Shown piece after piece: positions 763 to 60,276 of a stretch of 64,000 nucleotides of DNA; the first letter of the stretch is position 1; each line of letters opens with the position of its first letter. This DNA is from Batkoa obscura (taxonomy: Eukaryota), in NCBI GenBank assembly GCA_030770535.1, contig JASVEC010000027.1, positions 248,001-312,000 of the forward strand. Direction: 5' to 3'. The notes beneath the pieces were generated by a model. It was given only the letters and a program-made list of their open reading frames with translations. It was not told where the DNA came from and did not search any database. The position numbers and the translations under genes were made by a program.

Positions 763-1893
763 TCATTTTTTAGCAGTAAGCTCCTTTTCCGTCCTTTCTT
801 TGGAATCAATGGGAGTAATAAAATGCTTAGGGGATGGTGATCTTCTAGTAGGTTGTCTTCTTTTTACTACGCCATCTGGACCAGCGTGATAAATAGTTGA
901 CAGTAACTCATGCATTTCGTAGTAAAACTCGAAATTGCTAGCTCCTGAATTCAGTTGTTGAATCTGTTGATGATAATAGTGATAGTTATTATCAAAAGAT
1001 TGTCCAGAGTGAGGTGCTCCTCCTTTTGGGATATATTGAGAACCATCCGACGATTTAACTTTAGGGTTACTAGCTATCTTTTCAGTATACTTCTTATATT
1101 TTGCTACCAATACCTTCCATCTATTCTTACATTTTTCTACTGATCTTTCATACCCATATCCTCTAAGTTGGGTAGCGATCGTTGCCCATACACCTGGATG
1201 ACGACGTAAGTTAGTGAGCTCCCTTTTATGCATCAATAAAATTTGCACAAATTGTTTTGTTTCAGCATAATGCCAATTCTCAGCTCTACCTCGAATATCC
1301 TCTTCATCGTGAGAAGCCGGTAAAGTGGTTGGGGTAGGGTGAGATGGGGTTTGAGGTACACTAGAGCTATTGAGCGGGGTAGTAATACCTTCTCTTGAAA
1401 GGTGGCTTGGATATGATGGCATAGCATGATGGTTAGTAGAATAGTTATGATAATAAGGATGATTCGGGGTACTCATCATCATATTATTATACATTGGGAG
1501 TGATTCTCTTGAGATGGGGGGGATTTGAAAGCCATGAGTTGTTGGGGTACTTGGCTCGGTGTGATGTCCAGGATGGTTGAGATGAACGCTATTTGGCATG
1601 ATTGGTACAAAACTCATATTATTTTGATTGGCATGAGGTTGAGTGTTATAATGATAATGGCGCATTTGAGGGTGATTTTGAGGATGCCCTGCTGATTGAG
1701 GATAATGCTCATGGGTATCCTGATGCATGCGTGGCTCTATTTTTATAGGTTGAAGATGTTGTGGGTGATGGTTTTGATATTGTGAGTAGTAATGATGATT
1801 GGTGTTACTTACATTATTAGAGGTAGTTTGATGGGATGCTTTGCTAGGTTGATAACCATTGGATGAGGAAGGATAAGGGTTATAGTCCACCAT
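763..1893 (-). CDS. Myb/SANT-like (trihelix GT-1 type) DNA-binding protein, intronless, with His/Asn/Pro-rich N-terminus
   Basis: ORF contains the motif W.yaET..Fv.......RRHPGVWATIA..LRGYGYERSVEKCKNRWKVL..KYK, typical of the Myb_DNA-bind_4/trihelix domain; paralogous to 55943..56872. Confidence 0.85.
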   Translation of the reverse strand: MVDYNPYPSSSNGYQPSKASHQTTSNNVSNTNHHYYSQYQNHHPQHLQPIKIEPRMHQDTHEHYPQSAGHPQNHPQMRHYHYNTQPHANQNNMSFVPIMPNSVHLNHPGHHTEPSTPTTHGFQIPPISRESLPMYNNMMMSTPNHPYYHNYSTNHHAMPSYPSHLSREGITTPLNSSSVPQTPSHPTPTTLPASHDEEDIRGRAENWHYAETKQFVQILLMHKRELTNLRRHPGVWATIATQLRGYGYERSVEKCKNRWKVLVAKYKKYTEKIASNPKVKSSDGSQYIPKGGAPHSGQSFDNNYHYYHQQIQQLNSGASNFEFYYEMHELLSTIYHAGPDGVVKRRQPTRRSPSPKHFITPIDSKERTEKELTAKK

Positions 1894-4681
1894 AATAATT
1901 AATTAGCTTAAGGAATTCTATTAATATTATATACTTTTGTTTTTTGAAAGAATATTAAACTAATAAAAAATATTTAAAAGTGAGAAGTTTGGAATAACTT
2001 ATTTTTTCGAAGTTTATTTATACTTTTCTATTTTTGATTGAGTCGGTTTTCTAAATCAAAGTGAAGGTAATTTCAATCTTAAAAAATTGAAATCAATTAA
2101 TTTTTGGTGTAGAAATGCTCTTAGTGGTTGATAATCAGAGTAAACTTTCCCGAAATTAATGTTTCATCCTTGTAACTTTTTACTAAAGCGGAATATTTTA
2201 TGTTCATGACCCTAATTTTTTGAGGAATAATTTGTTACTTATTATTTATGAGAACCGGTTCTCGTTACTAATTATTCTTCACTTTGATGTCTTAATTTGG
2301 AAGTTCTACTATTGATGCGTTGCAGGTTCCAAGTGTTTGTGGTTTCAAACCAAGGAACAATTACATATTTAGTAGTACAATACTGCTAATTTTTTATTCG
2401 ATTTCTAATGTCCATGACATCTGAGAGGAGTACACATTCCTATTAAAGTAGAAGTCTTTTCAAGTTAATCCTTTAATTAGTAGTAGTATTGGTTCTTAAT
2501 AAATACGGTAGAATAATAGTAAATTTTAATTGGTTAATAAAAATAGATAGTAAGTTGATTGGTTATAATGCAGTTATGAATTATTCTTTTAATATTAGTA
2601 TTTCCTGGTAGAAGCTAAGCTAATTTAAAGTTAGTAATGAAAATCAATGGTTCTGTATAAAATAAATAATTTTTACTTTATTTTTATTTTATTTTCATTA
2701 TATTCTATGTGTAGTCTTATTAATTTTTAATACAAAATAGAACTATTTTTCATGAGTTAATACAATACTATCAGAACTATTGATTTTTTTTTAAATTTTC
2801 ATAAGATGTTATCTAGATAATAATGATGACGCTATATTTAAATACTATTAAAATCCGGTTAATCTATTACCATACTAAAGAATATAAAATCTCTATTTAT
2901 AACATCAATCACGCTTTTCAACTACCTTTATCCCAAATACCTTAACCTTATTGAGCAAAGCTATTGGCTTAGGTCTAAGGATTATTCTTATAATTTTTTT
3001 ATTGATTTTGAACCATAAAAAGAAGTATAATATAGAAAAACTACTTTCTCAATTAAAATCTTATAGTGCAAAGAAATTCAACATTTGAGCTTTATTTATA
3101 TATTGTTTATTTAAAGAGCTTAAATAAATTAGTAATGTCGCTTTTAATCGAGCTTTTATTTTAAAATTATTTTAATATATGATTTCAATACTTGTAAATT
3201 ATTTAAGTTGCCTAAATTGGTAATCTGATTATTTTCATTTTTCAAATTGGCTTAACTTTATAAGGGATTATATTTAAATTGTTTTATACTTTCTGTATTT
3301 AGGATCACTCTATCAAAGGCTGTGTTTATGAATATTCAGTGAAATAATAGTTGTTATTTATATTTTAACCTAAAGTCCTCTTTCCTTACTTTTTAAAATA
3401 ATCACAACTAAAATGCCTATTATCTTTTCATTATCAAGATCAAGATCAATTATTTATAATGTTATTTAAGTTATATTAAAATAAAATTATATGCTATGAA
3501 ATAATTTATAGTTTTATTATATAGCTTTAGTCTGAACTTTAAAGCATGAATTGTTACTAAAAATATGTTTATTTATAAAAATATCTTATACGTAATGCAC
3601 ACAACTTTTCTTTAATAAAAGTTAAATTATATGGGCTACTTTATTTTATAAAAAAGGAGACACCTTTTTCCGTACTCAGATTGAACGTTTATGATAATAA
3701 TAATAATAATAATAATAATAGCTATTATTATAAATTAAAACTAAATTCTGCCTTTTTTCCTTCTAATCAGGTGACTAAGTGTAGCATAATACCTCTTGAA
3801 ATTTAAAATGATGTTTGTCAACAAATTCTATTCCGCTTTATTTGAATATTTTTATCATTTTATGTTCTTATTTTAATTTATAGTTTAATGCTTTTACAGT
3901 TTTAATAACTTTCAAAAATGATTTAATATCTTTTAAAAATAAAGCAACTAGTTTATTCTATAATAATATTTTATAACATTTGTTTTTATGATGACTAATT
4001 GAAGATAATCTAATTGAAATTTAAATGCCTACCTCACACTTGGATGTGAGTCATTTATTTTATTTACACTAAATTATTTGCTTCATTATCTCCGTTTCTT
4101 CACTATTCTATGTTTAACTTAGTATTTATAAAACGACTATACACCTACTTTGTTAAATTTAATCAATTATAAACAAATGAATTAGGGCTGTATACTCTTT
4201 CGGTCCCTTAGTTCACTCTTTTTTATTTATCTTTCATCCCAACTCTTCTATCTCTGTTCATTGTTATTCTTATATTTTCTACCGTTAGCTAAATAAAACA
4301 CCTGAGCTTTCGAGCTTTCCATTTTTTTTTAAAGTAACAAATATAGTAAATTTTTTATTCACAACCTTTATAATATCAAATAAAATAGCGCTTTATTATA
4401 CAAACTTGATAACTTTATTTTAATTAGTATCATAAGTTTATTAAGAGGTTAAAATTAATTACAACTTTATTCACTTGTCTTTATTTTGAGTTTTTATATC
4501 ATCTTTTAATAGTTAAAACTAATTAAAGTTTTAATTGAATTAGCTTTTATACTGTTAAAAAAGTAATTCTTTAATATACTAATCAATTCAATAATAAATG
4601 TTAAGGAAAGAACCAAATCAACATATATAATTACTTTATAAAATGTTTTTCAAAATAGTTATTTTTTTACATATAGGTTAA

Positions 4682-10357: not shown

Positions 10358-10458
10358 TATGGGGATGTATTTTTATGTCTAACAATTTTACTAACAATTT
10401 TTCCACTCAAATGGCGCTTAAAAACGGAGAGAGTAATGAAGCCAAAAACATCATCATA
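10358..10458 (+). mobile_element. MITE family A copy (~100 bp)
   Basis: tatggggatgtattttt...ttttactaacaatttttccactcaaatggcgcttaaaaa...aaaaacatcatcata. Confidence 0.85.
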
Positions 10459-17157: not shown

Positions 17158-18072
17158 ATGACTCCAACAAACATAGTAAATTTCAATGAAATACCTAATT
17201 GGGGTAACAATTCCTTAAGTTTCAATCATCATGATGATGATTTTAAAGTCCAATTTTATTGTTTATCAAATGATAATGATTCTTCCTTGTCTCAACCCAC
17301 TACTTTAAGTTATCCGATTGTAATCGATACGGATGAAGAAGAAGAAGAAGAAGAAGAGGAAATAGTATTTTCCCAGCGACGTTCATTATTACCTACCACA
17401 GCAAGAATGCTCACAAGACCAAGACGTACCACCATGAATTCCAATTCCAATTCCAATTCCAATCAAACCAACTATCCTATCCTACTACCAAAAACTGTTG
17501 TTTATGAACCCGATTTTGAAATCAATTCTAAAGTATCCATATGGCAAGGGGATATTACAAAACTCCGAATTGATTGTATTGTAAACGCTACAACCTTTGA
17601 AATTTTACATGGTTCTGGTGTCACCCGAGCTATAATAACCGCTGGTGGACCAGATCTTATAGCTGAATGTCGAAAAATTGGTGGATGTGGAGCAGGTGAT
17701 ATTTGTGTAACTAAAGGTTATCGATTACCATGTAAATTTGTATTACATACTGTTGGACCATCAAGTGAAAATGAGCGATTATTAAAACAATGTTATTGGA
17801 AATGTCTGGATCAATTGGAGAAATTAAAACCAATGGGGAAATCCATTGCTTTCCCTTGTATTTCCACAGGGGTTAAAAGGTATCCAAACCCAGCAGCGGC
17901 GCATGTAGCGTTAAAAACGGTAAGTGAATGGCTAAGACAACATCCTGAAAGTTGTGTAAAGAGAGTGGTATTTTGTACTTTTTTGGAGTTGGATAAAGAT
18001 ATTTATAATGAACTTATTGCCATTTATTTCCCTCCCGCTTTGCCTAGATTTGATACCTATGAGTTACATTAA
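17158..18072 (+). CDS. Macro domain protein (MacroD/GDAP2-like) with divergent active-site loops
   Basis: SIWQGDITKL..DCIVNA...VTKGYRLPCKFVLHTVGP...SIAFPCISTG; acidic/low-complexity N-terminus. Confidence 0.9.
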   Translation: MTPTNIVNFNEIPNWGNNSLSFNHHDDDFKVQFYCLSNDNDSSLSQPTTLSYPIVIDTDEEEEEEEEEIVFSQRRSLLPTTARMLTRPRRTTMNSNSNSNSNQTNYPILLPKTVVYEPDFEINSKVSIWQGDITKLRIDCIVNATTFEILHGSGVTRAIITAGGPDLIAECRKIGGCGAGDICVTKGYRLPCKFVLHTVGPSSENERLLKQCYWKCLDQLEKLKPMGKSIAFPCISTGVKRYPNPAAAHVALKTVSEWLRQHPESCVKRVVFCTFLELDKDIYNELIAIYFPPALPRFDTYELH

Positions 18073-24296: not shown

Positions 24297-26710
24297 TCAT
24301 TCCATAACATCTTCTATATTACGATCAACCACCATCTCTTTGCCACCTTCAGCTTCCTCACGACCAACCACTTCCTGCCCACCTTCCTTTACTACCTCAC
24401 TCTCTTCGATTAATTCTTTCTCACTTGTAACCTCATCTGCTTCAAAAGTTGTAAAAATATCTTCATTTATATCCATTAAAGTATTCTGCTTCCAAGTGCC
24501 TAAACATGTATTAAGATCTCTATAACTTAATTTTAAATCATTTTCTTCCCATTCTTTTAAACTTTGTTCTTGAATTTTAACCCAATTATTTTTCTCCTTC
24601 TTTCTTTTCATCATTATACCTCGTTGCCATAATATTTTTTCTGTTGTTAAATTTAAATCCTCTTCATCTTCTCTGTTTTTATAACCTAAACGTTGACGAA
24701 TAGGGATTCTTTTAGGACTATTGTTATAGGCTAACCTTTGATTAATTGATATTCTTTTAGTAGGATAAGGTTTATTATGATTATAATTTTGTTATTTAAT
24801 TAGAGCAAGCCTTTAGTTGATAGATACACTTGTATCCTTATCATTCCTACAAGAACTCTTCTCATTCTTATTTATATTATTTTTCTTAATCAAATTTAAT
24901 GGTATTCTATCTTTAGTATATTGACTATCATTATTCTGGTAGTTTCGTTTCATTTTAGTAAAATGATCTTCTGAGTTTCTCACCTCAAGTAAATTTATAA
25001 GGGCTCAAATACCATCTTTCATTTTTTTTTCTTCTGATTCCTGCTCCATATTTTTATTTTTAGTTATTGATTCAAGGAACCGTTTATCTCCTTCATTTTC
25101 TTTTTTAATTAAATTTTCTTTATACTTATCACCTGAAAACGTTTCTTGTTGTTCATTTATATCATCAGCTTCAATCTCCTTATCAACATTGTGATTGAGT
25201 ATGTCCTCTTTATTCTTACTATTTCCAAAACATAACTCATAATCTTCACTTAAATCCTCTTCCCATCCTCTCATATCTGTACCCTCCAATACTTCTTTAG
25301 TTCCATCCCTAATATCATTATTCTGTTTATTGTTATAAAGTTCTAACTCTGTATCTTTAAAGCTTTTTCTTTCAACGATAGCAGATTCGTCTTCAAGCTC
25401 TTTCCGTATGTTTGGTTTAATTTCCAGCTCTACATCCTTTATAATGTCTTTTGTAATGTCTTGTCTGTCAAACCTTTCGCCCCCATTGAAACTGCTAAAA
25501 TCTTTGATATCATTTCCGCATAAATCAAAGTTATTATTTCCAACAACTACTCTAGTGTCTTTATTAGAATCCTTTTCCACTTCTTCAATATGATCAAAAG
25601 TTCTCCATTCTTTCTTGAAGTTGTACGATTTCTTTGTTTCATTTGCCATATTATTGCCCCTCTTTTTATTTTCCCAATTACGATTATTATTTTGATCCGT
25701 CCCTCTATTTTTTGGATTCTTTACTTTTCGATTCCAATTATACCCTTGGTTACCATTATTATTATTATCTTTCAGATCATAAAATAGACTTGAAGTGCTC
25801 ATTTTATTAAATTCATTGTTATTATTATTATCGAATCGATTTGTGCTATTATTAAAACTGTTATTATTGTTAAATTGGCTTGTGCTATTATTTTTCGAAT
25901 TAAAGTAGGTAGTATTAGAATTACGTTGTGCATCCCCTTGATTGTTTTCAAAGCTATTATTAAATTGGTTATTATTAAAATCATTATTATTATTAGTCCC
26001 TCGAAAATTGATATTTCTAAACTGGTTTCGATTAAACTTCTTTTCATTAAAGTTTCCATTATCTCCTTGAAAGCTATTATTGTTTTGAAAACCATTATTA
26101 TTTTGATAATTATTATAATTATTATTATTCTTTCGCCTACTATTATTATTATATCTGCTATTATTTCGGTTATTGTTATTGAACTGATTATCGGAATTGC
26201 CTATGTTATTTGAATTCCATAACTCTTCCTTCTGATTGTATCCAGTTTAATTTATTGTCTAAATAAAAACCAAGTTCGTTATGAAAATAGAGAAAGTGAG
26301 CCATTACCACTATTATTCATGAGTGGATTCCTAAAATCACCATAATTAAGTCTTTGCTTCCAATTGTTGTTATCGTTATCTCCTTGATTCCAACCGTTAT
26401 TATTTTTATTTTTTCGATTAAAACCATTACTATTATTTCCGAGATTGCAATTCTTATTGTTATTCTCCTGATTCCAGTTGTTACTATTATTTCCCTGGTT
26501 AAAGTCATTATCATTATTTATTGGGCTCTAATTGTTATTAATATCCCCATCCATTCCATTAAACTCCCTAAAAAGCTGGATTTCATCTGGATTATTCAAC
26601 TCCTCATTTAACTGATCAACTGGAGAGTAATTGAGTATATAATCATGTTTCTTGATCCACTCTATTATCAATTTTTTTTCTTGATATGTTAATGTTGGTA
26701 TTTCATTCAT
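24297..26710 (-). pseudogene. Disrupted gene for a long Asn/Arg/Glu-rich low-complexity protein
   Basis: ORFs 24297..24614 and 25005..25802 share a frame that is open from ~26246 except for isolated stops (25005 TGA, 24813 TAA, 24792 TAA); upstream segment 26710-26308 has an isolated TAG at 26528. Confidence 0.7.
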
Positions 26711-28608: not shown

Positions 28609-28707
28609 ATAGGGATATTTTTTTATGCTTAAGAATTTTACTAACAGTTTCGCTTAAATAGTGCTTAAAAGATGGAAAAAGTAATGAAGTAAAAAAAACA
28701 TCCCTTA
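28609..28707 (+). mobile_element. MITE family A copy
   Basis: agggatattttttt...ttttactaacagtttcgcttaaatagtgcttaaaagatggaaaaag...aaaacatccctta. Confidence 0.8.
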
Positions 28708-29389
28708 ATGTTAACGCGAGTTATAAAGTTACAAACTACCAGATTGCTTTTTTTTAAATATTTTTTAGAATTTGAATTAAACTAATTAAATATCTTTTTT
28801 TATACATTTGCTAATTTTATTAAAACTAGCTATTTTTATATTATGAAGTATTGCTTTACCAGCTTTATAATTAATTATAACATAATAAATCACTTAAATC
28901 GTTTATAAAACTAGTTGCAGTTTTGTAGCTAATTTAACTATGATTCATGTAATAAATTTAATTAGCTTTAGCTGATTTTGCCACTGAAGGTTATTATGTT
29001 CTTAAACTCAGGTATAATCAATTTAGAGCTTTATTTAGATTTTCTATAAAAACTTTTGCTACCTAATTGCAAAGAATATTATTTTTATATTTTGATGTCC
29101 ATATTTAGCAACTATAATAAAGGATAACTATCATCATGTTCCTTATATATAGCCACCTAGCTGGAGTATAATTTTTTTTAAATAATAACTTTGTGAAATA
29201 TCGGTTCATTAGCTCTAGGATTGATTATAATATGATAATCAATTCAGAGTTCCTTATATAGATTTGCTGTAAGAATTGCCACCACCTGATCACGAAGGAC
29301 TTATTGCCCATGTTTTAGTGTCCATACTTGGCAACTATAATAAGCTATAACTGTTATAATATCCCTTATATATAGCCACCCGGTTGGAG

Positions 29390-29396
29390 TATAAAA
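29390..29396 (+). promoter_or_regulatory. TATA box within the LTR-like repeat, ~55 nt upstream of the 312-aa ORF
   Basis: TATAAAA; conserved in the reverse copy (ttttata at ~32247). Confidence 0.5.
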
Positions 29397-29450
29397 GGGA
29401 TTCTTCAACATACAAACCAAGCCCTTTCCCTTGATATATATTTTTCAACA

Positions 29451-30389
29451 ATGAAACTTAATTTGATGATAATAATAGCTTGTGTGACGATCTCTCACAT
29501 TGAAGCTGGACAATATTTAGACACGAATGGTAAGCTTACTGACTCAACAGGACATGAGACAGGGCAGCTAACTTATCAGTGTGACGAGGATTGTCCTGTC
29601 ATGAGTGAGGTTTCACACAATTTAGAGGTCAGCAACGCAACTAGTATAATTATGAATGACGGAATTATCGCACCTGTGCAATCGTATTGCACGGTATCGA
29701 ACAACGGCGCGCTCATATACAGTTTAGGATGCAAAGAGCACGTGGGCACTAAGTGGCCGTTAACAACTCAAACTCCATCACACATGATAGTAGTTAAAAT
29801 GTGTTCCAATAGGTGGTATTACGCTATTACTTATTGGAAAAGGGGTTTGGGCGGTAGTCACCTACATCAGGACACTGAGTGGAACCAGAGTGGCAGTGGA
29901 CGAGCGGGACGATTCGTTATCGTAGCTCAGTCAGCTAAAGGTGTACCGCAACAAGCTCGAGTCAATACTCCAATATCCGTAGTGACCACATGGTGGAATA
30001 GCTGCAGTGAGGGAGTTGCATGGCCGTTCTATAACAGTGTCCAGGGCAATGTTATTACAGATTTGATAGATGGTATACTTAGCTTTTTGCAAAGCAGAAA
30101 TAAGAGGAGAGACCCTAATTGTCAAATAGGGACTGCTGAAAACGGTCGCGGCCTGAAATGCGTGTCGGCAAATTGTAAGGGTACTACTTCACAACCAATA
30201 AAGTTAGTGCCAGAAGATAGAAGACTAAATCACGCAGGTATGGCCATACCTCTGTATAAACTTAAAACAGCAGCAGGAGATAAACAGCTAGTAGCTCAAT
30301 GTAACGGTGATGACTTATATTGGAGCAGTAACTTAGACGATATGACGTATGTAGCATTTCAAGCGGACAGATGGCGCTCTTATGAGTGA
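29451..30389 (+). CDS. Secreted Cys-rich preproprotein of probable foreign origin (killer-preprotoxin-like architecture)
   Basis: Intronless 312 aa; signal peptide MKLNLMIIIACVTISHIEA; 11 Cys; dibasic sites KR130-131 and RNKRR216-220; N-glycosylation sequons N62 and N145; visibly GC/CpG-richer than host genes. The ORF is secure; the function is inferred. Confidence 0.75.
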   Translation: MKLNLMIIIACVTISHIEAGQYLDTNGKLTDSTGHETGQLTYQCDEDCPVMSEVSHNLEVSNATSIIMNDGIIAPVQSYCTVSNNGALIYSLGCKEHVGTKWPLTTQTPSHMIVVKMCSNRWYYAITYWKRGLGGSHLHQDTEWNQSGSGRAGRFVIVAQSAKGVPQQARVNTPISVVTTWWNSCSEGVAWPFYNSVQGNVITDLIDGILSFLQSRNKRRDPNCQIGTAENGRGLKCVSANCKGTTSQPIKLVPEDRRLNHAGMAIPLYKLKTAAGDKQLVAQCNGDDLYWSSNLDDMTYVAFQADRWRSYE

Positions 30390-30456
30390 CCAAGAACAAA
30401 CGAAATCACACGTCACCGAAACTTGAAGTAAACAAGTGTTTACCCATAGTGTACGG

Positions 30457-30665
30457 AAAAAAATAAATAAATAAATAAATAAAAAAAATAAATAAATAAA
30501 AAAAATAAATAAATAAAAAAAATAAATAAATAAATAAAATAAATAAATAAATAAAATAAATAAATAAAATAAATAAATAAAAAAAAAATAAAAAAAATAA
30601 AAAAAAAAAAATAAAAAAATAAAAAAAAAAAAAAAAAAATAAAAAAATAAAAAAAAAAAATAAAA
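30457..30665 (+). repeat. ~210-nt A-rich tract ((AAAT)n grading into poly-A), followed by (TA)n
   Basis: Directly visible; begins 67 nt after the stop codon of the 312-aa ORF. Confidence 0.95.
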
Positions 30666-31860
30666 GTATATATATATATATATAATAGTATAAAATAAAG
30701 ATATATATAATTAAACAAGTGAATTTTAATTGGATTACTCTCTGATAACGTATCATTAATAAAGTCACTAAGTCTTTCTGACAACATCTTATATAGATTT
30801 TACAGTAGTATCTTCTATTCTATTTGTTTTACATAATTCGTAGCTTATTACATACTATCTCTATTAAGTTAAGTCTATCTTAGTTACATAAACTAAGCCC
30901 CTTCGACTCAAGGCAAGTTAATTAAGCAAGAGTAGCTTTTAACTCCGACCACTGAGTATCAACTTTCACAATTTGGGGCTTTTTAAATTATTCCTTGATA
31001 TTATATTTTTTAATAAAGCCATTAAGTATTACTTATGGTATTCTATTTAGGTTTTACAATAATATCTTTTATTTTATTTGTATTATAAGGTTTATAGTTT
31101 ATTATAAATAATTTCTATTAATTTAAGTCTATCTTGATTACATAAACTAAACTTTTTTAAATTTAGCTAGTTAATTAAACAAAAACTGCTTTTAACTCTA
31201 ACTACTGAGTACTAACTTTTATAGTATTTAATAATAATAATTCTAATACTTAAACTGATAACTTATTAGTATTCTTTGTTAAAATTTTATATTAAGGTTA
31301 TTAGTTAATTAATAAATCGAACTAAATTTTAGCTTAGTAATATTATATAATTTATCTAGCTGATTAGTTTTATTACATTTTTTTTATAATTATTATAAAA
31401 AATAACTTTAATCTTTTATCAGTTTTATAAAATACAACTTTATTAAATTTTATTTTTAACTTTTCAAGCTTATTTTTAACAATAAAATATAAACTAATTA
31501 AAACTAAAAGCTTTATATTATTTATTTATTTAAAATTATTAAAATATAAAATATAATAATAATTAATCTCATTTTTAACTTTTAATTTAATATTTAAGTT
31601 AAAATTAATATTAAAAACAACTTCAATGAAATCATGTTTATTTAAATCTAATACTAATACTTTTAATTTATTTAAGTTTTAATACTTGATTAAATATTTA
31701 ATTGTTATTTTATTAACATTAAATTTAAATATCTTAAATTGACTTAAATATCTTAAATTGACTTAAATAATTACTAAATTTTTTCAATAACTAAGATTTA
31801 ATTTAATTTTAATTCTTAATTCTTTAACTTAAAATTTAATGTTATTATTAATTTTAAGCA

Positions 31861-31964
31861 TATAGGGATGTATCTTTTATTTAAAAATTTTACTAACAAT
31901 TATTCCACTCAAATAGCGCTTAAAAAATGGAAAAAGTGATGAAACCAAAAAAACACCCCCAAAT
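31861..31964 (+). mobile_element. MITE family A copy abutting the solo LTR
   Basis: tatagggatgtatc...ttttactaacaattattccactcaaatagcgcttaaaaaatggaaaaagtgatgaaacc...acaccccca. Confidence 0.85.
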
Positions 31965-31969
31965 AATTT

Positions 31970-32452
31970 TGTGAAAGTTGGTACTCAGTGGTAGGAGTTA
32001 AGAGCAGTTCTTGGTTGATTAAGTTGCCTTGAGTCGAACGGTCTTAGTTTATATAACTAAGGTAGACTTAAATGAATAAGAATAGTACGTAATAAGTTAC
32101 GAACTATATAAAACAAATAGAATAGATAATACTATTGTAAAATATACGTAAGACGTTGTCAGAAAGACTTAGTGGCTTTATTAATGGTACGATATCAGGG
32201 AGTAATTCAGTTAAAAAGCCTCTAGTTAGTATGTTGAAGAATTTCTTTTATACTCCAACTGGGTGGCTATATATATAAGGGACATTATAGCAGTTATTCC
32301 TTATTGTAATTGCCAAGTATGGACATTAAAACGTGGGCAATAAGTTCTTCGTGATCAGGTGGTGGTAATTCTCACAGCAAATCTATATAAGGAACTCTGA
32401 ATTGATTATTATATTATAATCAATCCTAGAGCTAATGAAGCGATGTTTTACA
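31970..32452 (-). mobile_element. Uninterrupted solo-LTR-like element (~483 bp)
   Basis: Reverse complement begins TGTAAAAC and ends TTTCACA; collinear with both halves of 29192-30970; no internal retrotransposon coding sequence seen nearby. Confidence 0.8.
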
Positions 32453-33403
32453 CATTCAATGATATCTTCTAATATAGGTGCAAATAGAAACACTTTTATT
32501 ATTGAACATAACTTTGTATTATCTGAAGTAATGGCTAATTAATACATTGATGCTGCTGGTTGGCTCATATTATATTTTGCTGGGACTTTGGCTTTTATAT
32601 GGATTATTTTGATCTAGATATTTTAAATAGAACTACTTACTTATTAAATAATAAAGATAATTCAAAACAATAACTGCTATAATATAATATTGTAATCATT
32701 TTGTTTTAATAACACAGTTTGTTTAACTATTTTTCAAAACTATAATAAAATTACAGTATATTTACTAGATTTAATTTATGCTTTAAACCTTGATTTCTTA
32801 TAATAAATACCATTAATTAAAAATTATTATTAGAATATTTTCTAAAAACATTTAAACAAATTCTTCACTTAGTGTAGCTATAAGTTTAAGATCAAATATA
32901 ACACCTGAAAAGCTATCTACATACAAACCTCATAAAGAAAAGAAATTAGAAAAGATCCAGTTTACTGCAATTTGGCATCAGGGATTAAAGAATTTAGCCG
33001 TTAATCACAGTTCAGTTGAATATAAGGATATATATGCAGTTCATTAATAAGTATAAAGATATGAGTATATACTTAGGTTAGCTTCCTCTTGGAATAAGTG
33101 AATGGTCTACTCTATCTTTCCTTCCTTTCTTTTAATAACTTTCATTTTTTGAGACAGTTTGCTTTCCTCACCAGCATTATACTTTTGAAATTTGACTAAA
33201 ATGACTGTTTATCTTTATCTTGAACCCAGTTTACTTATAATAAATCACAGTAATATTGTTTTGGGATCAATGTTTGTCTAAGAATAGAAATGAGTAAATT
33301 AGTTATACTAATTAAATGCTATCTCTTTGTTTTTGCTCATTGAATTAAATTCTTAGCTATAAAAAAGTAAATATCGAAGGTAAGGAAAGTGATATACATT
33401 ATA

Positions 33404-33505
33404 TATGGGGATGTGTTTTTTTGTTTGAAAATTTTACTACCAATTTTTCCGCGCAAATAGCGCTTAAAAAATTGAAAAAGTGATGAAACCAAAACATCCC
33501 CATGT
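33404..33505 (+). mobile_element. MITE family A copy (well preserved)
   Basis: TIRs ATGGGGATGT / ACATCCCCAT in TA-rich flanks. Confidence 0.9.
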
Positions 33506-40094: not shown

Positions 40095-40922
40095 TTAATG
40101 AAAAGCAAAGGTACCAAATTTTGGCAGAGTAACTGGAAAATAAGTTGAAATTCGATCATAATAAATTTCTTGGTCTGTTTTTAAATAAGTACAAAATATT
40201 ACTCTCTTAATACTAGTTTCTGGGTGAGTTCTTAACCAAGAAGAAACCGAATTCAAAGCTATATTGGCTGCGGATAAATTAGGAAATCGATTGATGCCTG
40301 TAGATATACATGGAAAAGCAATTGAGCTTATTGGGGGGTCCAAGCTAGAAGCAAGTTCCAAGCTTTTAACATAACAAGATTTCAACTTATCGTTAATTTG
40401 GTATGCTGGACCAACGGTGTGTATGACATGCTTTGCCGGTAATCTATACCCTTTGGTAATGCAAACTTCTCCAACTCCACAACCCCCAATCAATTTACAT
40501 TCAGCAACAAATTCTGGTCCTCCAGCATCAACGATGGCCTTAGTGACACCATAGCCGTGTAATATCTTAAAAGTGGTTGCGTTTACAATAACATCCACGT
40601 TTAATTTTGTTATATCTCCTTTCCATATTGATACTTTAGAATTAATATAAAAATCTGGCTCATAATTGTGCTTTTTAAAAGGCAATGTGACATTATATAT
40701 TGTGCTACCAGGACCTTGACGGCCTTCAGTAAAAAGCTGGCTCTCATTTAACTCTTCTTCGTCATCCACATCTGAGGAAGAATTACTTGAGCTACTTTCG
40801 TATCCATTACTTGATTGGCTCTTACATTGATTACTATCAAGTTCATTATTTCTAGCTTCGTTATAGACTAAAGAGTCATAACCCCATGTTGGAATTTGAT
40901 TGATACTAAATATTTTTTCCAT
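40095..40922 (-). CDS. Macro domain protein, paralogue of 17158..18072
   Basis: YEPDF.INSKVSIWKGDITKL..D.IVNATTF.ILHG.GVT.AI..AGGP...HTVGP...SIAFPCISTG. Confidence 0.9.
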   Translation of the reverse strand: MEKIFSINQIPTWGYDSLVYNEARNNELDSNQCKSQSSNGYESSSSNSSSDVDDEEELNESQLFTEGRQGPGSTIYNVTLPFKKHNYEPDFYINSKVSIWKGDITKLNVDVIVNATTFKILHGYGVTKAIVDAGGPEFVAECKLIGGCGVGEVCITKGYRLPAKHVIHTVGPAYQINDKLKSCYVKSLELASSLDPPISSIAFPCISTGINRFPNLSAANIALNSVSSWLRTHPETSIKRVIFCTYLKTDQEIYYDRISTYFPVTLPKFGTFAFH

Positions 40923-41195: not shown

Positions 41196-41300
41196 ATGAG
41201 AATGTTTTTTTTGGTTTCATTATTTTTCTATCTTTTAGGCGTTATTTAAGTGGAAAAATTGTTAGTAAAATTCTTAAACATAAAAATACATCCCCAAATA
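41196..41300 (-). mobile_element. MITE family A copy (reverse)
   Basis: ...aagtggaaaaattgttagtaaaattcttaaacataaaaatacatcccca is the reverse complement of the family consensus. Confidence 0.85.
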
Positions 41301-47981: not shown

Positions 47982-48086
47982 TATGGGGATGTATTTTTGT
48001 GTTTAAGAATTTTACTAACAATCTTTCCACTCAAATAGTGCTTAAAAGATGGAAAAAGTGATGAAGTCAAAAAAAACACCCCTATA
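47982..48086 (+). mobile_element. MITE family A copy
   Basis: tatggggatgtattttt...aaaaaacacccctata. Confidence 0.9.
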
Positions 48087-48128: not shown

Positions 48129-48233
48129 TATGGGGATGTGTTTTTTTGTTTAAGAATTTTACTAACAATTTTTCCGCTTAAATAGCGCTTAAAACATGGG
48201 AAAAGTGATGAATCCAAAAAAAATATCCTCATA
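48129..48233 (+). mobile_element. MITE family A copy (tandem neighbour, ~40 bp from the previous copy)
   Basis: tatggggatgtgttttt...aaaaatatcctcata. Confidence 0.9.
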
Positions 48234-51718: not shown

Positions 51719-51822
51719 TATGGGGATGTATTTCTTGTTTAAGAATTTTACTAATAATCTTTCTGCTGAAATAGCGCTTAAAAGATAGGAGAAACAATGA
51801 AGCCAAAAAAAACGCCTTCATA
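51719..51822 (+). mobile_element. MITE family A copy
   Basis: tatggggatgtatttc...aaatagcgcttaaaaga...aaaaacgccttcata. Confidence 0.85.
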
Positions 51823-55942: not shown

Positions 55943-56872
55943 ATGGATCCTTCAAAGATTATGAATCATAATAACCAAACGATGACTACAAGTGAAGCAA
56001 TGAGCCAAGGCTATTATTACCCTTCGAGCTACTTAGTAGATAACGATATGAACTCACATATGATGATGAATAATTTTAACTATAATCTACAACATTATAA
56101 TGCGTACCAAGAAGAGGTCTATAGTAGTGTACCTCAGCCCTCTTTTTCTCAATCTCCAGTTCAGCTTGACCATTCCGATCCAAACCCATTATGGATTCCT
56201 CCAGCACAGATGGTACCTATAAGCGCTTATATGAGCCAAGGTAACGAAAGCAATGATCTTATGATTTCTCCAGAGATGGAAGATATGACTTTAGACTACC
56301 AGCAAAAGCTAGAAAACTACAACTCGAAGTACCAGCATAATAAATATGCCAAAGATGGAGGCTGGAATATGGAACTTGAAAATAAAAGTATAATCCAAAT
56401 GCAAGAAAGTATAAGAGAAAGGGCAGAAAACTGGAGCCCAATTGAGACTCAACATTTCGTTAGTGCTATACTAAAGTATAAAAAAGAGATGAAAGAGATG
56501 CGTAAACATCCTGAAGTATGGGAAAAATTATCTTTAGAAATGAAAAGACAAGGCTACGAAAGATCGTTATCTAGATGTAAAAACAAATGGAAATCCTTAG
56601 TTGCTAAGTTTAAAAAGTTAAGTAAAGATATCTTAGACTCCCCAGATATATCGACTAAAGCTCAACTAGCACTTGATTCGGAACCCTTTTTAAGTTTGAA
56701 TGAAATACTTCAACATTCTTATCAACAAACTGACTCTGGATTAGTCAAGAAATACAAATCAGGATTTGTTAAGGCTCTTCACAAAGAGCAAACTCTATCT
56801 TTTCAATTTCACCCCGAAAACTCTGGTATAGATGATGACAAACTTCCCACCTTTACACAGTTTCAGTTATAG
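55943..56872 (+). CDS. Myb/SANT-like (trihelix) DNA-binding protein, paralogue of 763..1893
   Basis: IRERAENWSPIETQHFV...RKHPEVWEKLS..MKRQGYERSLSRCKNKWKSLVAKFKK. Confidence 0.85.
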   Translation: MDPSKIMNHNNQTMTTSEAMSQGYYYPSSYLVDNDMNSHMMMNNFNYNLQHYNAYQEEVYSSVPQPSFSQSPVQLDHSDPNPLWIPPAQMVPISAYMSQGNESNDLMISPEMEDMTLDYQQKLENYNSKYQHNKYAKDGGWNMELENKSIIQMQESIRERAENWSPIETQHFVSAILKYKKEMKEMRKHPEVWEKLSLEMKRQGYERSLSRCKNKWKSLVAKFKKLSKDILDSPDISTKAQLALDSEPFLSLNEILQHSYQQTDSGLVKKYKSGFVKALHKEQTLSFQFHPENSGIDDDKLPTFTQFQL

Positions 56873-60173: not shown

Positions 60174-60276
60174 TATGGGGATGTATTTTTTTGTTTAAGA
60201 ATTTTACTAACAATCTTTCTGCTCAAATAGCGCTTAAAAAATGGAAAAGGTGATGAAACCAAAAAATATCCCCATT
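60174..60276 (+). mobile_element. MITE family A copy
   Basis: tatggggatgtattttt...aaaaatatccccat. Confidence 0.9.

Follow-up and report, generated by a model that had tools for sequence, protein, structure and literature searches.

A putative gene capture from messenger RNA within a single long terminal repeat of Batkoa obscura

A stretch of 64,000 nt from the genome of Batkoa obscura (GenBank assembly GCA_030770535.1, contig JASVEC010000027.1, positions 248,001 to 312,000 of the forward strand), which we refer to in its full length as the window, harbors a long terminal repeat (LTR) that is split by a 312-codon open reading frame (ORF) and that has itself been inserted into an older, eroded LTR. 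RNA-based capture of this ORF, as proposed by an initial annotation of the sequence, proves to be its best reading: the insert is mRNA-shaped, lies in sense orientation, carries an A-rich tract and has LTR sequence on both sides. As for the route, the retrotransposon may have used its own reverse transcriptase to copy the gene from a polyadenylated mRNA during minus-strand strong-stop transfer, a proposal to which we give an even chance of being right.

If true, this is a natural and recent instance, in a fungus, of a full-length gene born inside a single LTR, which would have obtained a promoter and a polyadenylation signal in one step. Such a product is familiar chiefly from yeast experiments under selection and, in other geometry, from animals and plants. 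Furthermore, the two alleles described below, one intact and likely expressed, the other broken, would show the birth and the death of such a gene, and its predicted product would define an unannotated family of secreted beta-trefoil proteins in biocontrol and plant-pathogenic fungi. Should the donor be foreign, the case would also offer a specific, RNA-based path by which genes could move horizontally from one eukaryote to another.

The nested repeats and the inserted cassette

In blastn searches of the window with an intact, 483-bp copy of the repeat (the reverse of 31970-32452), four further pieces are found (E 4e-88 to 1e-19), which fit the order old-left, young-left, young-right, old-right (Table 1). 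The three-level nesting of old LTR, young LTR and ORF cassette that had been claimed for this region is thereby borne out, and the motifs lie where they had been placed. The young LTR has TG...CA ends with 7-nt inverted termini (TGTGAAA ... TTTCACA) and is flanked by a 4-bp target duplication, ACTT/ATTT, of which three of four positions match; the one mismatch is a C>T change, as in the eroded host copy. Deleting the young LTR together with one copy of the duplication brings the start region of the old LTR into register with the intact copy. The erosion of the old LTR consists mainly of C>T and G>A changes (62 of 119 substitutions); its 'caacatac' motif is eroded and its TATA box is damaged. 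While its start had been set at 29014, a local alignment of the first 60 nt lets it begin at a TG at 28948, so that it probably spans 28948-31223. No target duplication was found around this old copy or around the intact one. Judging by the segment 28948-29016, the old LTR may represent a subfamily in which the beginning of U3 is longer; a loose contig end before 29237 in the public run X2 (see below) resembles this segment (18/30 by eye).

Within the intact copy, TATAAAA occupies positions 201-207 and AATAAA positions 271-276, the latter being kept in all three copies. Transcription is expected to start 25-30 nt behind a TATA box, which places the expected start at about positions 230-237 of the LTR. 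Evidence from outside the assembly comes from the contigs of four public runs, coded X1, X2, X4 and X5. The first three carry one organism label (A), are RNA by guess and stem from one single study, while X5 carries another label (B) and is DNA by guess; 19 of the 24 listed runs, with a share of <0.1, were left out of the contig comparison, as was X3. Contigs were compared at a likeness threshold of 85-86, with loose ends of ≤30 letters and with 30450-30695 masked. They show presence, not absence, and their summed depths represent neither copy number nor RNA level. In X2, two contigs continue past the terminal CA with 2 nt and then with a sequence that starts with TGG and resembles a primer-binding site (agreement 0.97; one contig at depth 587). 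Together with the TG...CA ends and the TATA/AATAAA layout, this supports the earlier assignment of the repeat as an LTR-like element with a U3-R-U5 organization.

The copy at 31970 had been taken as an empty-site control, and empty is indeed the common state of this repeat. Five contigs in X1, X2 and X5 join 29402-29417 to 30724 with 8-23 letters between them and thus represent empty LTRs. Likewise, the depth in X5 is 14.9-15.4 over the ORF, 19-25 over unique flanks and junction contigs, and 10,000-45,000 over LTR positions; therefore, most LTR copies are without the ORF.

The cassette measures about 1.3 kb and consists of a 29-nt leader, the ORF, a 66-nt 3' stretch, a 210-nt A-rich tract and a TA-rich spacer. 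Its gene is full length, has no visible intron and lies in sense orientation to the LTR, with the A-rich tract at its 3' end. The cassette breaks the LTR at positions 228-237, some 20-30 nt behind the TATA box and before AATAAA, an interval that a random insertion would strike in about 2-3 of 100 cases (11-15 of 483 positions, by arithmetic); the TATAAAA motif of the young LTR lies 55 nt before the ATG at 29451. Both insertion breaks, that of the cassette and that of the young LTR, fall at LTR positions 225-237. The A-rich tract, on which the initial annotation is silent, is composed of 177 A, 32 T and 1 G and holds all A or T runs of ≥12 in the 64 kb (three runs). Slippage is evident from (AAAT)n and 17-nt periodic units, and the tract is likely a decayed, slipped poly(A) tail; its length is that given by the assembly only, as it is bridged by none of the contigs.

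At the junctions, AAACCAAG (29414) is nearly duplicated by AAACAAG (30713), over 7-8 nt with an indel and 47 nt from the A-rich tract. The adjoining right junction reads TGAA where empty copies have GCT, GCC, GTT or ACT, so it is not a clean target duplication. The 10-mer TAAACAAGTG occurs perfectly at both 30429 and 30712, a recurrence that is only mildly unusual (57/2000 shuffles of the cassette, 47/5000 of the 3' untranslated region (UTR)). The positions of these motifs, of the TATA box and of the ACTT/ATTT flanks were all as stated in the initial annotation. In addition, the 5' end of the cargo (29432-29466) matches the right junction (30700-30735) in 29 of 36 places, which was reached in 2/600 shuffles and 0/450 AT-rich controls; both ends of the cargo are similar to the start of R. 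The right junction resembles the start of R, the 5' end of the cargo and the 10-mer of the 3' UTR. Its likeness to the end of U3 is less convincing, and a reading of 30666-30723 as a second, decayed end of U3 was not accepted, with 28/3000 shuffles against the intact copy but 154/3000 against the young copy's own U3 and 457/600 in a local test.

Table 1. Coordinates of the nested repeats and of the cassette in the window
Feature	Positions	Strand	Basis
Old eroded LTR, 5' part (U3 to start region)	28948..29191	+	core 29014-29171 = positions 44-205 of the intact copy, 73.6% identity; start probable, from local alignment
Target duplication, left copy ACTT	29188..29191	+	sequence
Young LTR, U3 and first bases of R, begins TG	29192..29421	+	29192-29417 = positions 1-228 of the intact copy, 90.8% identity over 228 nt
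Young LTR TATA box	29390..29396	+	same motif at 201-207 of the intact copy
Leader of the captured gene, 29 nt	29422..29450	+	sequence; likely-RNA contigs begin at 29425 (X1) and 29440 (X2, X4)
312-codon ORF, no visible intron	29451..30389	+	open frame, fold prediction, homologues
3' untranslated stretch, 10-mer at 30429 within a 16-nt hairpin	30390..30455	+	sequence
A-rich tract, 210 nt	30456..30665	+	base composition; one assembly
TA-rich spacer and right junction, three partial look-alikes	30666..30723	+	shuffle tests
Young LTR, R-U5, AATAAA at 30758-30763, ends CA	30724..30970	+	= positions 237-483 of the intact copy, 85.8% identity over 247 nt
Target duplication, right copy ATTT	30971..30974	+	sequence
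Old eroded LTR, 3' part (R-U5)	30975..31223	+	blastn (30977-31219 = positions 233-479 of the intact copy, 71.0% identity), local alignment
Intact solo LTR, no cargo, no own target duplication	31970..32452	-	blastn

Transcription and the two alleles

In all three likely-RNA runs compared, the ORF is covered by one contig with no differences (depth 179.6, 115.9 and 17.5), which ends at 30449. These contigs begin 29-44 nt behind the TATA box, and the corresponding DNA contig of X5 extends into U3 to 29319. In the same likely-RNA runs, the depth is 0 throughout 32468-32700 and 0-32 over 31289-31812. As they come from one study and from contigs only, these start positions hint no more than weakly at U3 as the promoter of the captured gene. 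The initial suggestion that the LTR may serve as a ready-made promoter is plausible in this light, with the expected start being placed by motif positions. The depth of R-U5 over that of U3 is about 8- to 23-fold in the likely-RNA runs and about 2.4-fold in DNA (by arithmetic), which fits a start at this site, although we do not count it as support.

X5 shares the nested structure. Its contigs contain the left junction between old and young LTR (28906-29223; four differences and four gap letters), the right one between young and old LTR (joints at 31000, depth 24-25) and the passage from U3 into the ORF, with the stretch 29223-29319 unbridged; therefore, the structure is older than the split of the two organism labels. 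At the same time, the young LTR differs from the X5 majority in at most 15 of 473 places (44 places were listed in all, 29 of them in the ORF), and the event is therefore recent. The ORF of X5 is broken by a stop at codon 182 (29996 in the window) and by a 17-nt deletion with frameshift at codon 272 (30265). Since it is broken in a related organism, the gene is dispensable. Among the 29 differences listed between the two ORF copies, to which up to five unlisted ones may be added, 20 change an amino acid and nine are silent; 19 have A/T in the window and G/C in X5, and eight the reverse. Divergence appears higher in the ORF than in the flank (29/922 vs 4/314), but not significantly so (p 0.10).

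Two further observations concern the X5 copy. Over 30142-30265, its depth doubles (31.7 and 27.8 vs 15) and two ORF contigs overlap by just 12 nt, which may point to a small bubble or to a second, short copy of the piece. In the contig that takes in 29319-29450, 39 differences were counted, 25 of them listed; of the other 14, at least nine can probably be ascribed to the U3 part (29319-29450), which is more than for the ORF, and the cargo of X5 may sit behind a somewhat different U3, owing to conversion or to another locus.

Possible routes into the repeat

The proposed route follows from standard LTR replication. Minus-strand strong-stop DNA, the copy of R-U5, would have jumped to the 3' end of a co-packaged mRNA and not to the 3' R of the element. 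The reverse transcriptase would then have copied the mRNA to its 5' end and returned to the element RNA at its U3/R end, and plus-strand synthesis would have yielded an LTR of the form U3-gene-A tract-R-U5. Integrase would have placed this element, with a 4-bp duplication, in an older LTR from its own family, LTR-LTR recombination would have left the solo form, and U3 would from then on have supplied the promoter of the captured gene. Such a strand transfer would explain the position, the orientation, the full length, the short repeat of R and the untidy junctions in one event; an untidy right junction and R-like cargo ends are what switching driven by microsimilarity predicts (PMC5131818). 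The junction similarities thereby offer candidate switch points. Template switching with microsimilarity and immediate LTR-driven transcription are described for animals, plants and yeast in PMC5131818, PMC5470649 and PMC7175516.

Several points weigh against this proposal. The A-rich tract is separated from R by a 57-nt spacer, and no second cargo-bearing LTR or internal gag-pol was seen in the contigs, whose loose ends are short. An A-tract with a short junction duplication is also a hallmark of retrocopies made by long interspersed nuclear elements (LINEs), according to PMC5470649, and the repeated 10-mer permits a reading as two insertions. In the Drosophila cases considered (PMC5131818), most retrocopies are partial and take the place of internal ORF sequence instead of splitting an LTR. 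The parent gene was not found in the run contigs, so that the loss of introns has no reference; the transcription start and the U3/R boundary are deduced from TATA and AATAAA; and contigs can show neither start nor level of transcription, the RNA label itself being a guess. Moreover, the X5 comparison does not support selection on the ORF (ratio 0.65-0.91, p 0.27-0.84 vs neutrality), and in 14 of 100 simulations the ORF stayed free of stops after 30 neutral substitutions (substitutions only). Lastly, the structure model of the product, described in the following section, has a low confidence (pLDDT 49.3), its Foldseek matches in PDB stay above E 0.001, and a shared fold shows no function.

Alternatively, a LINE-type enzyme could have put the mRNA copy into a resident solo LTR by target-primed reverse transcription, landing behind the TATA box by chance or because this site is open, and the copy would have survived through the promoter it gained. 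We consider this possible, if on the unlikely side. The tail and the near-duplication of AAACCAAG and AAACAAG match the hallmarks mentioned above, and survival bias could explain position and orientation. However, the duplication is imperfect and followed by four letters that fit no empty copy, despite the few differences of the young LTR from the X5 majority; the TA-rich spacer parts it from the A-tract; and long A or T runs are otherwise absent from the 64 kb. The survival argument, in turn, needs selection, which neither the X5 comparison nor the simulations support. The '8-bp duplication' at the junctions does not distinguish template switching from target-primed reverse transcription.

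An improbable variant involves two events, in which the R-like 10-mer of the 3' UTR served as the switch point that joined the gene (29422-30428) to R, and 30439-30711 is a separate, A-tailed insert with a perfect 10-bp duplication. While TAAACAAGTG indeed stands in perfect form on either side of this block, at the shuffle frequencies given above, three look-alikes were tried on a low-complexity junction, so that 1-3 in 100 is weak evidence. Furthermore, the X5 copy also continues through 30439-30449, and none of the nine joints listed in a survey of X5 (1356 contigs on 29150-31000, likeness 86, short contigs, with 103 loose ends outside the listing) skips the block.

Still less probable is a capture at the DNA level, in which a break in the LTR was mended with a piece of DNA, the fungus's own or foreign, and the A-tract arose in place as a growing microsatellite. 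No intron-bearing parent is known and the (AAAT)n and 17-nt units do show slippage, but the piece outlines an mRNA, with 29 nt before the ATG and the A-tract 66 nt after the stop; it brings no donor promoter or other flank, and its position and orientation would be a coincidence. We give equally little credence to the LTR start region as a general insertion hotspot, an idea of the initial annotation in favour of which two events lie no more than about 5 bp apart on the LTR, as none of the nine listed joints links the site to another LTR end. The cassette's position is better explained by the U3/R boundary as a jump site of the reverse transcriptase, and the entry of the young LTR into the old one at the same position, a coincidence of about 2 in 100, is treated as chance or as a weak preference for open promoter DNA.

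Predicted product, possible donor and known systems

Searches with phmmer with the encoded protein against 1.84 billion representatives gave eight matches, of which six are real; the other two (P0006, P0009) were dropped as repeat-driven, covering short stretches only. The best homologue is a metagenome protein on a 909-bp contig (44% identity, E 2.6e-58). The others, all hypothetical proteins, come from Pseudogymnoascus (e.g. VF21_07828), the dictyostelid Heterostelium (PPL_02296), Botrytis cinerea (BCIN_08g01290), Akanthomyces and Metarhizium (MAA_09923), with 27-44% identity over about 200-230 residues and common motifs around K130, D141, C185, C242 and D287. In a tree of nine rows, the window protein clusters with those of the metagenome, Pseudogymnoascus and Heterostelium (100/100), and the Botrytis, Akanthomyces and Metarhizium proteins stand apart; the nearest row is 42% identical, and as the root is a drawing aid, the tree names no donor. 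In the homologues of Metarhizium acridum (P0008, P0029, P0044), the C-terminus is shortened and the last predicted trefoil strands are gone. The family may have been lost repeatedly.

No match to the protein was found among Pfam families up to E 1, in a word-based protein search (647 candidates), among PDB sequences (as single sequence or profile), in PHROG, or among plasmids or phages. Searches were equally negative for viral contigs (0/22 and 0/6 pattern matches), with no viral locus, for metagenome contigs (0/94 and 0/32) and for prokaryote genomes (0/5), and longer fused forms were absent among 6951 candidates, which is weak evidence. The literature searched by seven locus tags, mostly without subscription papers, records no function for the homologues.

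Hydropathy alone predicts a signal peptide at residues 1-19, and no transmembrane stretch besides the N-terminus. A structure model from a 21-row alignment reached a mean predicted local distance difference test score (pLDDT) of 49.3 and a predicted template modelling score (pTM) of 0.53, compared with a pLDDT of 31.4 for a single-sequence model. In VIA-align, it superimposes on a designed beta-trefoil over 122 residues (Z 11.7, root-mean-square deviation 2.7); the best 50 rows, which we take to be beta-trefoil proteins throughout, are all tied at Z 9.9-11.7, with 2-13% identity over 120-150 residues. Foldseek (best E 6.5e-3) points in the same direction, with no PDB match reaching E 0.001, as do Atlas look-alikes at 0.83-0.85 (about 90-106 of 256 features), which serve as a lead only. 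The protein is predicted to be secreted and, based on the model, to form a beta-trefoil at about residues 104-309. Some 75 residues are inserted into this trefoil; they are modelled poorly and include an amphipathic helix (200-217).

Given that many of the closest folds are lectins or lectin domains and that the homologues occur mostly in fungi attacking insects or plants, we tentatively suggest that the protein may be an extracellular accessory factor that binds glycans in the manner of a lectin and is directed at other organisms; protease inhibition would be the next option. Hallmarks of ricin-B are missing, as there is no Pfam ricin-B match and no repeated QxW among the conserved columns. 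The one viral fold match under E 0.001, a Tupanvirus protein with 10% identity, is read as shared fold only. A killer-toxin preprotoxin of a dsRNA satellite was rejected, because its dibasic RNKRR site is unconserved in the homologues, the predicted trefoil spans this site and there is no viral locus; a retroviral env was rejected for want of a transmembrane stretch besides the N-terminus and of a conserved dibasic site.

As to the donor, the window has a G+C content of 26% and its neighbouring genes match the Pfam families Fungal_trans and Opi1, which identifies it as fungal. The G+C content at third codon positions (GC3) of the ORF is 0.39, compared with 0.22 pooled and 0.11-0.33 for 11 host frames. 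The parent of so young a copy should be >90% identical; given only a single path in X5 (at single-copy depth, likeness 85-86) and a single sequence in the likely-RNA runs, no parent copy was seen among these contigs. A foreign donor is plausible in view of the high GC3, the absent parent copy and the patchy family, and loss of a native parent is also possible. A more far-reaching scenario strikes us as rather unlikely: the fungal LTR retrotransposon would have captured a foreign organism's mRNA between its own promoter and polyadenylation signal, yielding a horizontal, immediately expressed gene, and the patchy distribution of the family across insect- and plant-pathogenic ascomycetes, a dictyostelid and this fungus would reflect such mRNA transfers.

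Elsewhere in the window, a family of elements of about 98 bp, with inverted ends GGGGATGT...ACATCCCC and TA-rich flanks, gives 12 blast matches and is very deep in X5. Its members lie at 31862-31959 (10 bp from the intact LTR), 33405-33502, 28609-28704, 10359-10452, 41209-41296, 47983-48072, 48130-48219, 51720-51808 and 60175-60274, with three weaker matches besides. It looks like a family of miniature inverted-repeat transposable elements (MITEs), for which the TA flanks let us guess a Tc1/mariner type. Two Macro-domain paralogues (17158-18072, + strand; 40095-40922, - strand) share 67% nucleotide identity over 577 nt, and two Myb/SANT-like genes were recognized at 763-1902 (- strand) and 55943-56872 (+ strand), one by Pfam match and the other by eye. 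At 24297-26246 (- strand), two low-complexity, Asn-rich open frames (164 and 413 codons) with strong strand skew and no Pfam match are possibly the remnant of a mobile element. The 64 kb contain no tRNA genes, and a scan for bacterial promoters, irrelevant to a fungus, stayed at chance level.

Among known beta-trefoil proteins, the ricin-B-type fungal lectins, protease inhibitors, Kunitz-STI and MIR proteins and the lectin domains of insecticidal proteins resemble the product in predicted fold (Z about 10-11.7). Unlike them, it lacks a Pfam or PDB sequence match and has an insertion of about 75 residues and a predicted signal peptide. Mushroom lectins are generally described as cytoplasmic.

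Several known systems come close to the capture itself. LINE/L1 processed retrocopies, as presented in PMC5470649, likewise feature an intronless ORF, an A-rich tail and a short junction duplication, whereas here the duplication is imperfect, a spacer lies between tail and junction, and the insert occupies the start region of an LTR. For Ty1 retrosequences in Saccharomyces, oligo(A) is reportedly joined to the start of R, and strong-stop DNA is said to prime on the 3' end of the mRNA. As in our case, the reverse transcriptase of an LTR element copies cellular RNA and can place it under a foreign promoter; however, Ty1 retrosequences are laboratory-selected and derive from the cell's own genes, while the present one is natural, common to two organism labels and without its donor. 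These retrosequences (Derr 1991, Schacherer 2004, Maxwell 2004, Maxwell and Curcio 2007) are cited in PMC7175516 and PMC5131818. In LTR-mediated retroposition, described for Drosophila, other animals and the maize Bs1 element by Tan et al. 2016 (PMC5131818), an mRNA copy likewise lies within LTR-element sequence, with junction similarities and LTR transcription. The copies treated there are mostly partial, replace the internal ORF and lie between two LTRs, whereas in the window a single LTR is split, at its putative U3/R boundary, by an ORF of full length with an A-tract, with no parent found. The literature searched, mostly without subscription papers, yielded no paper on fungal retrogenes in solo LTRs. 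The process, LTR-mediated retroposition, is known; unusual are the natural geometry at U3/R, the missing parent and the unnamed beta-trefoil cargo.

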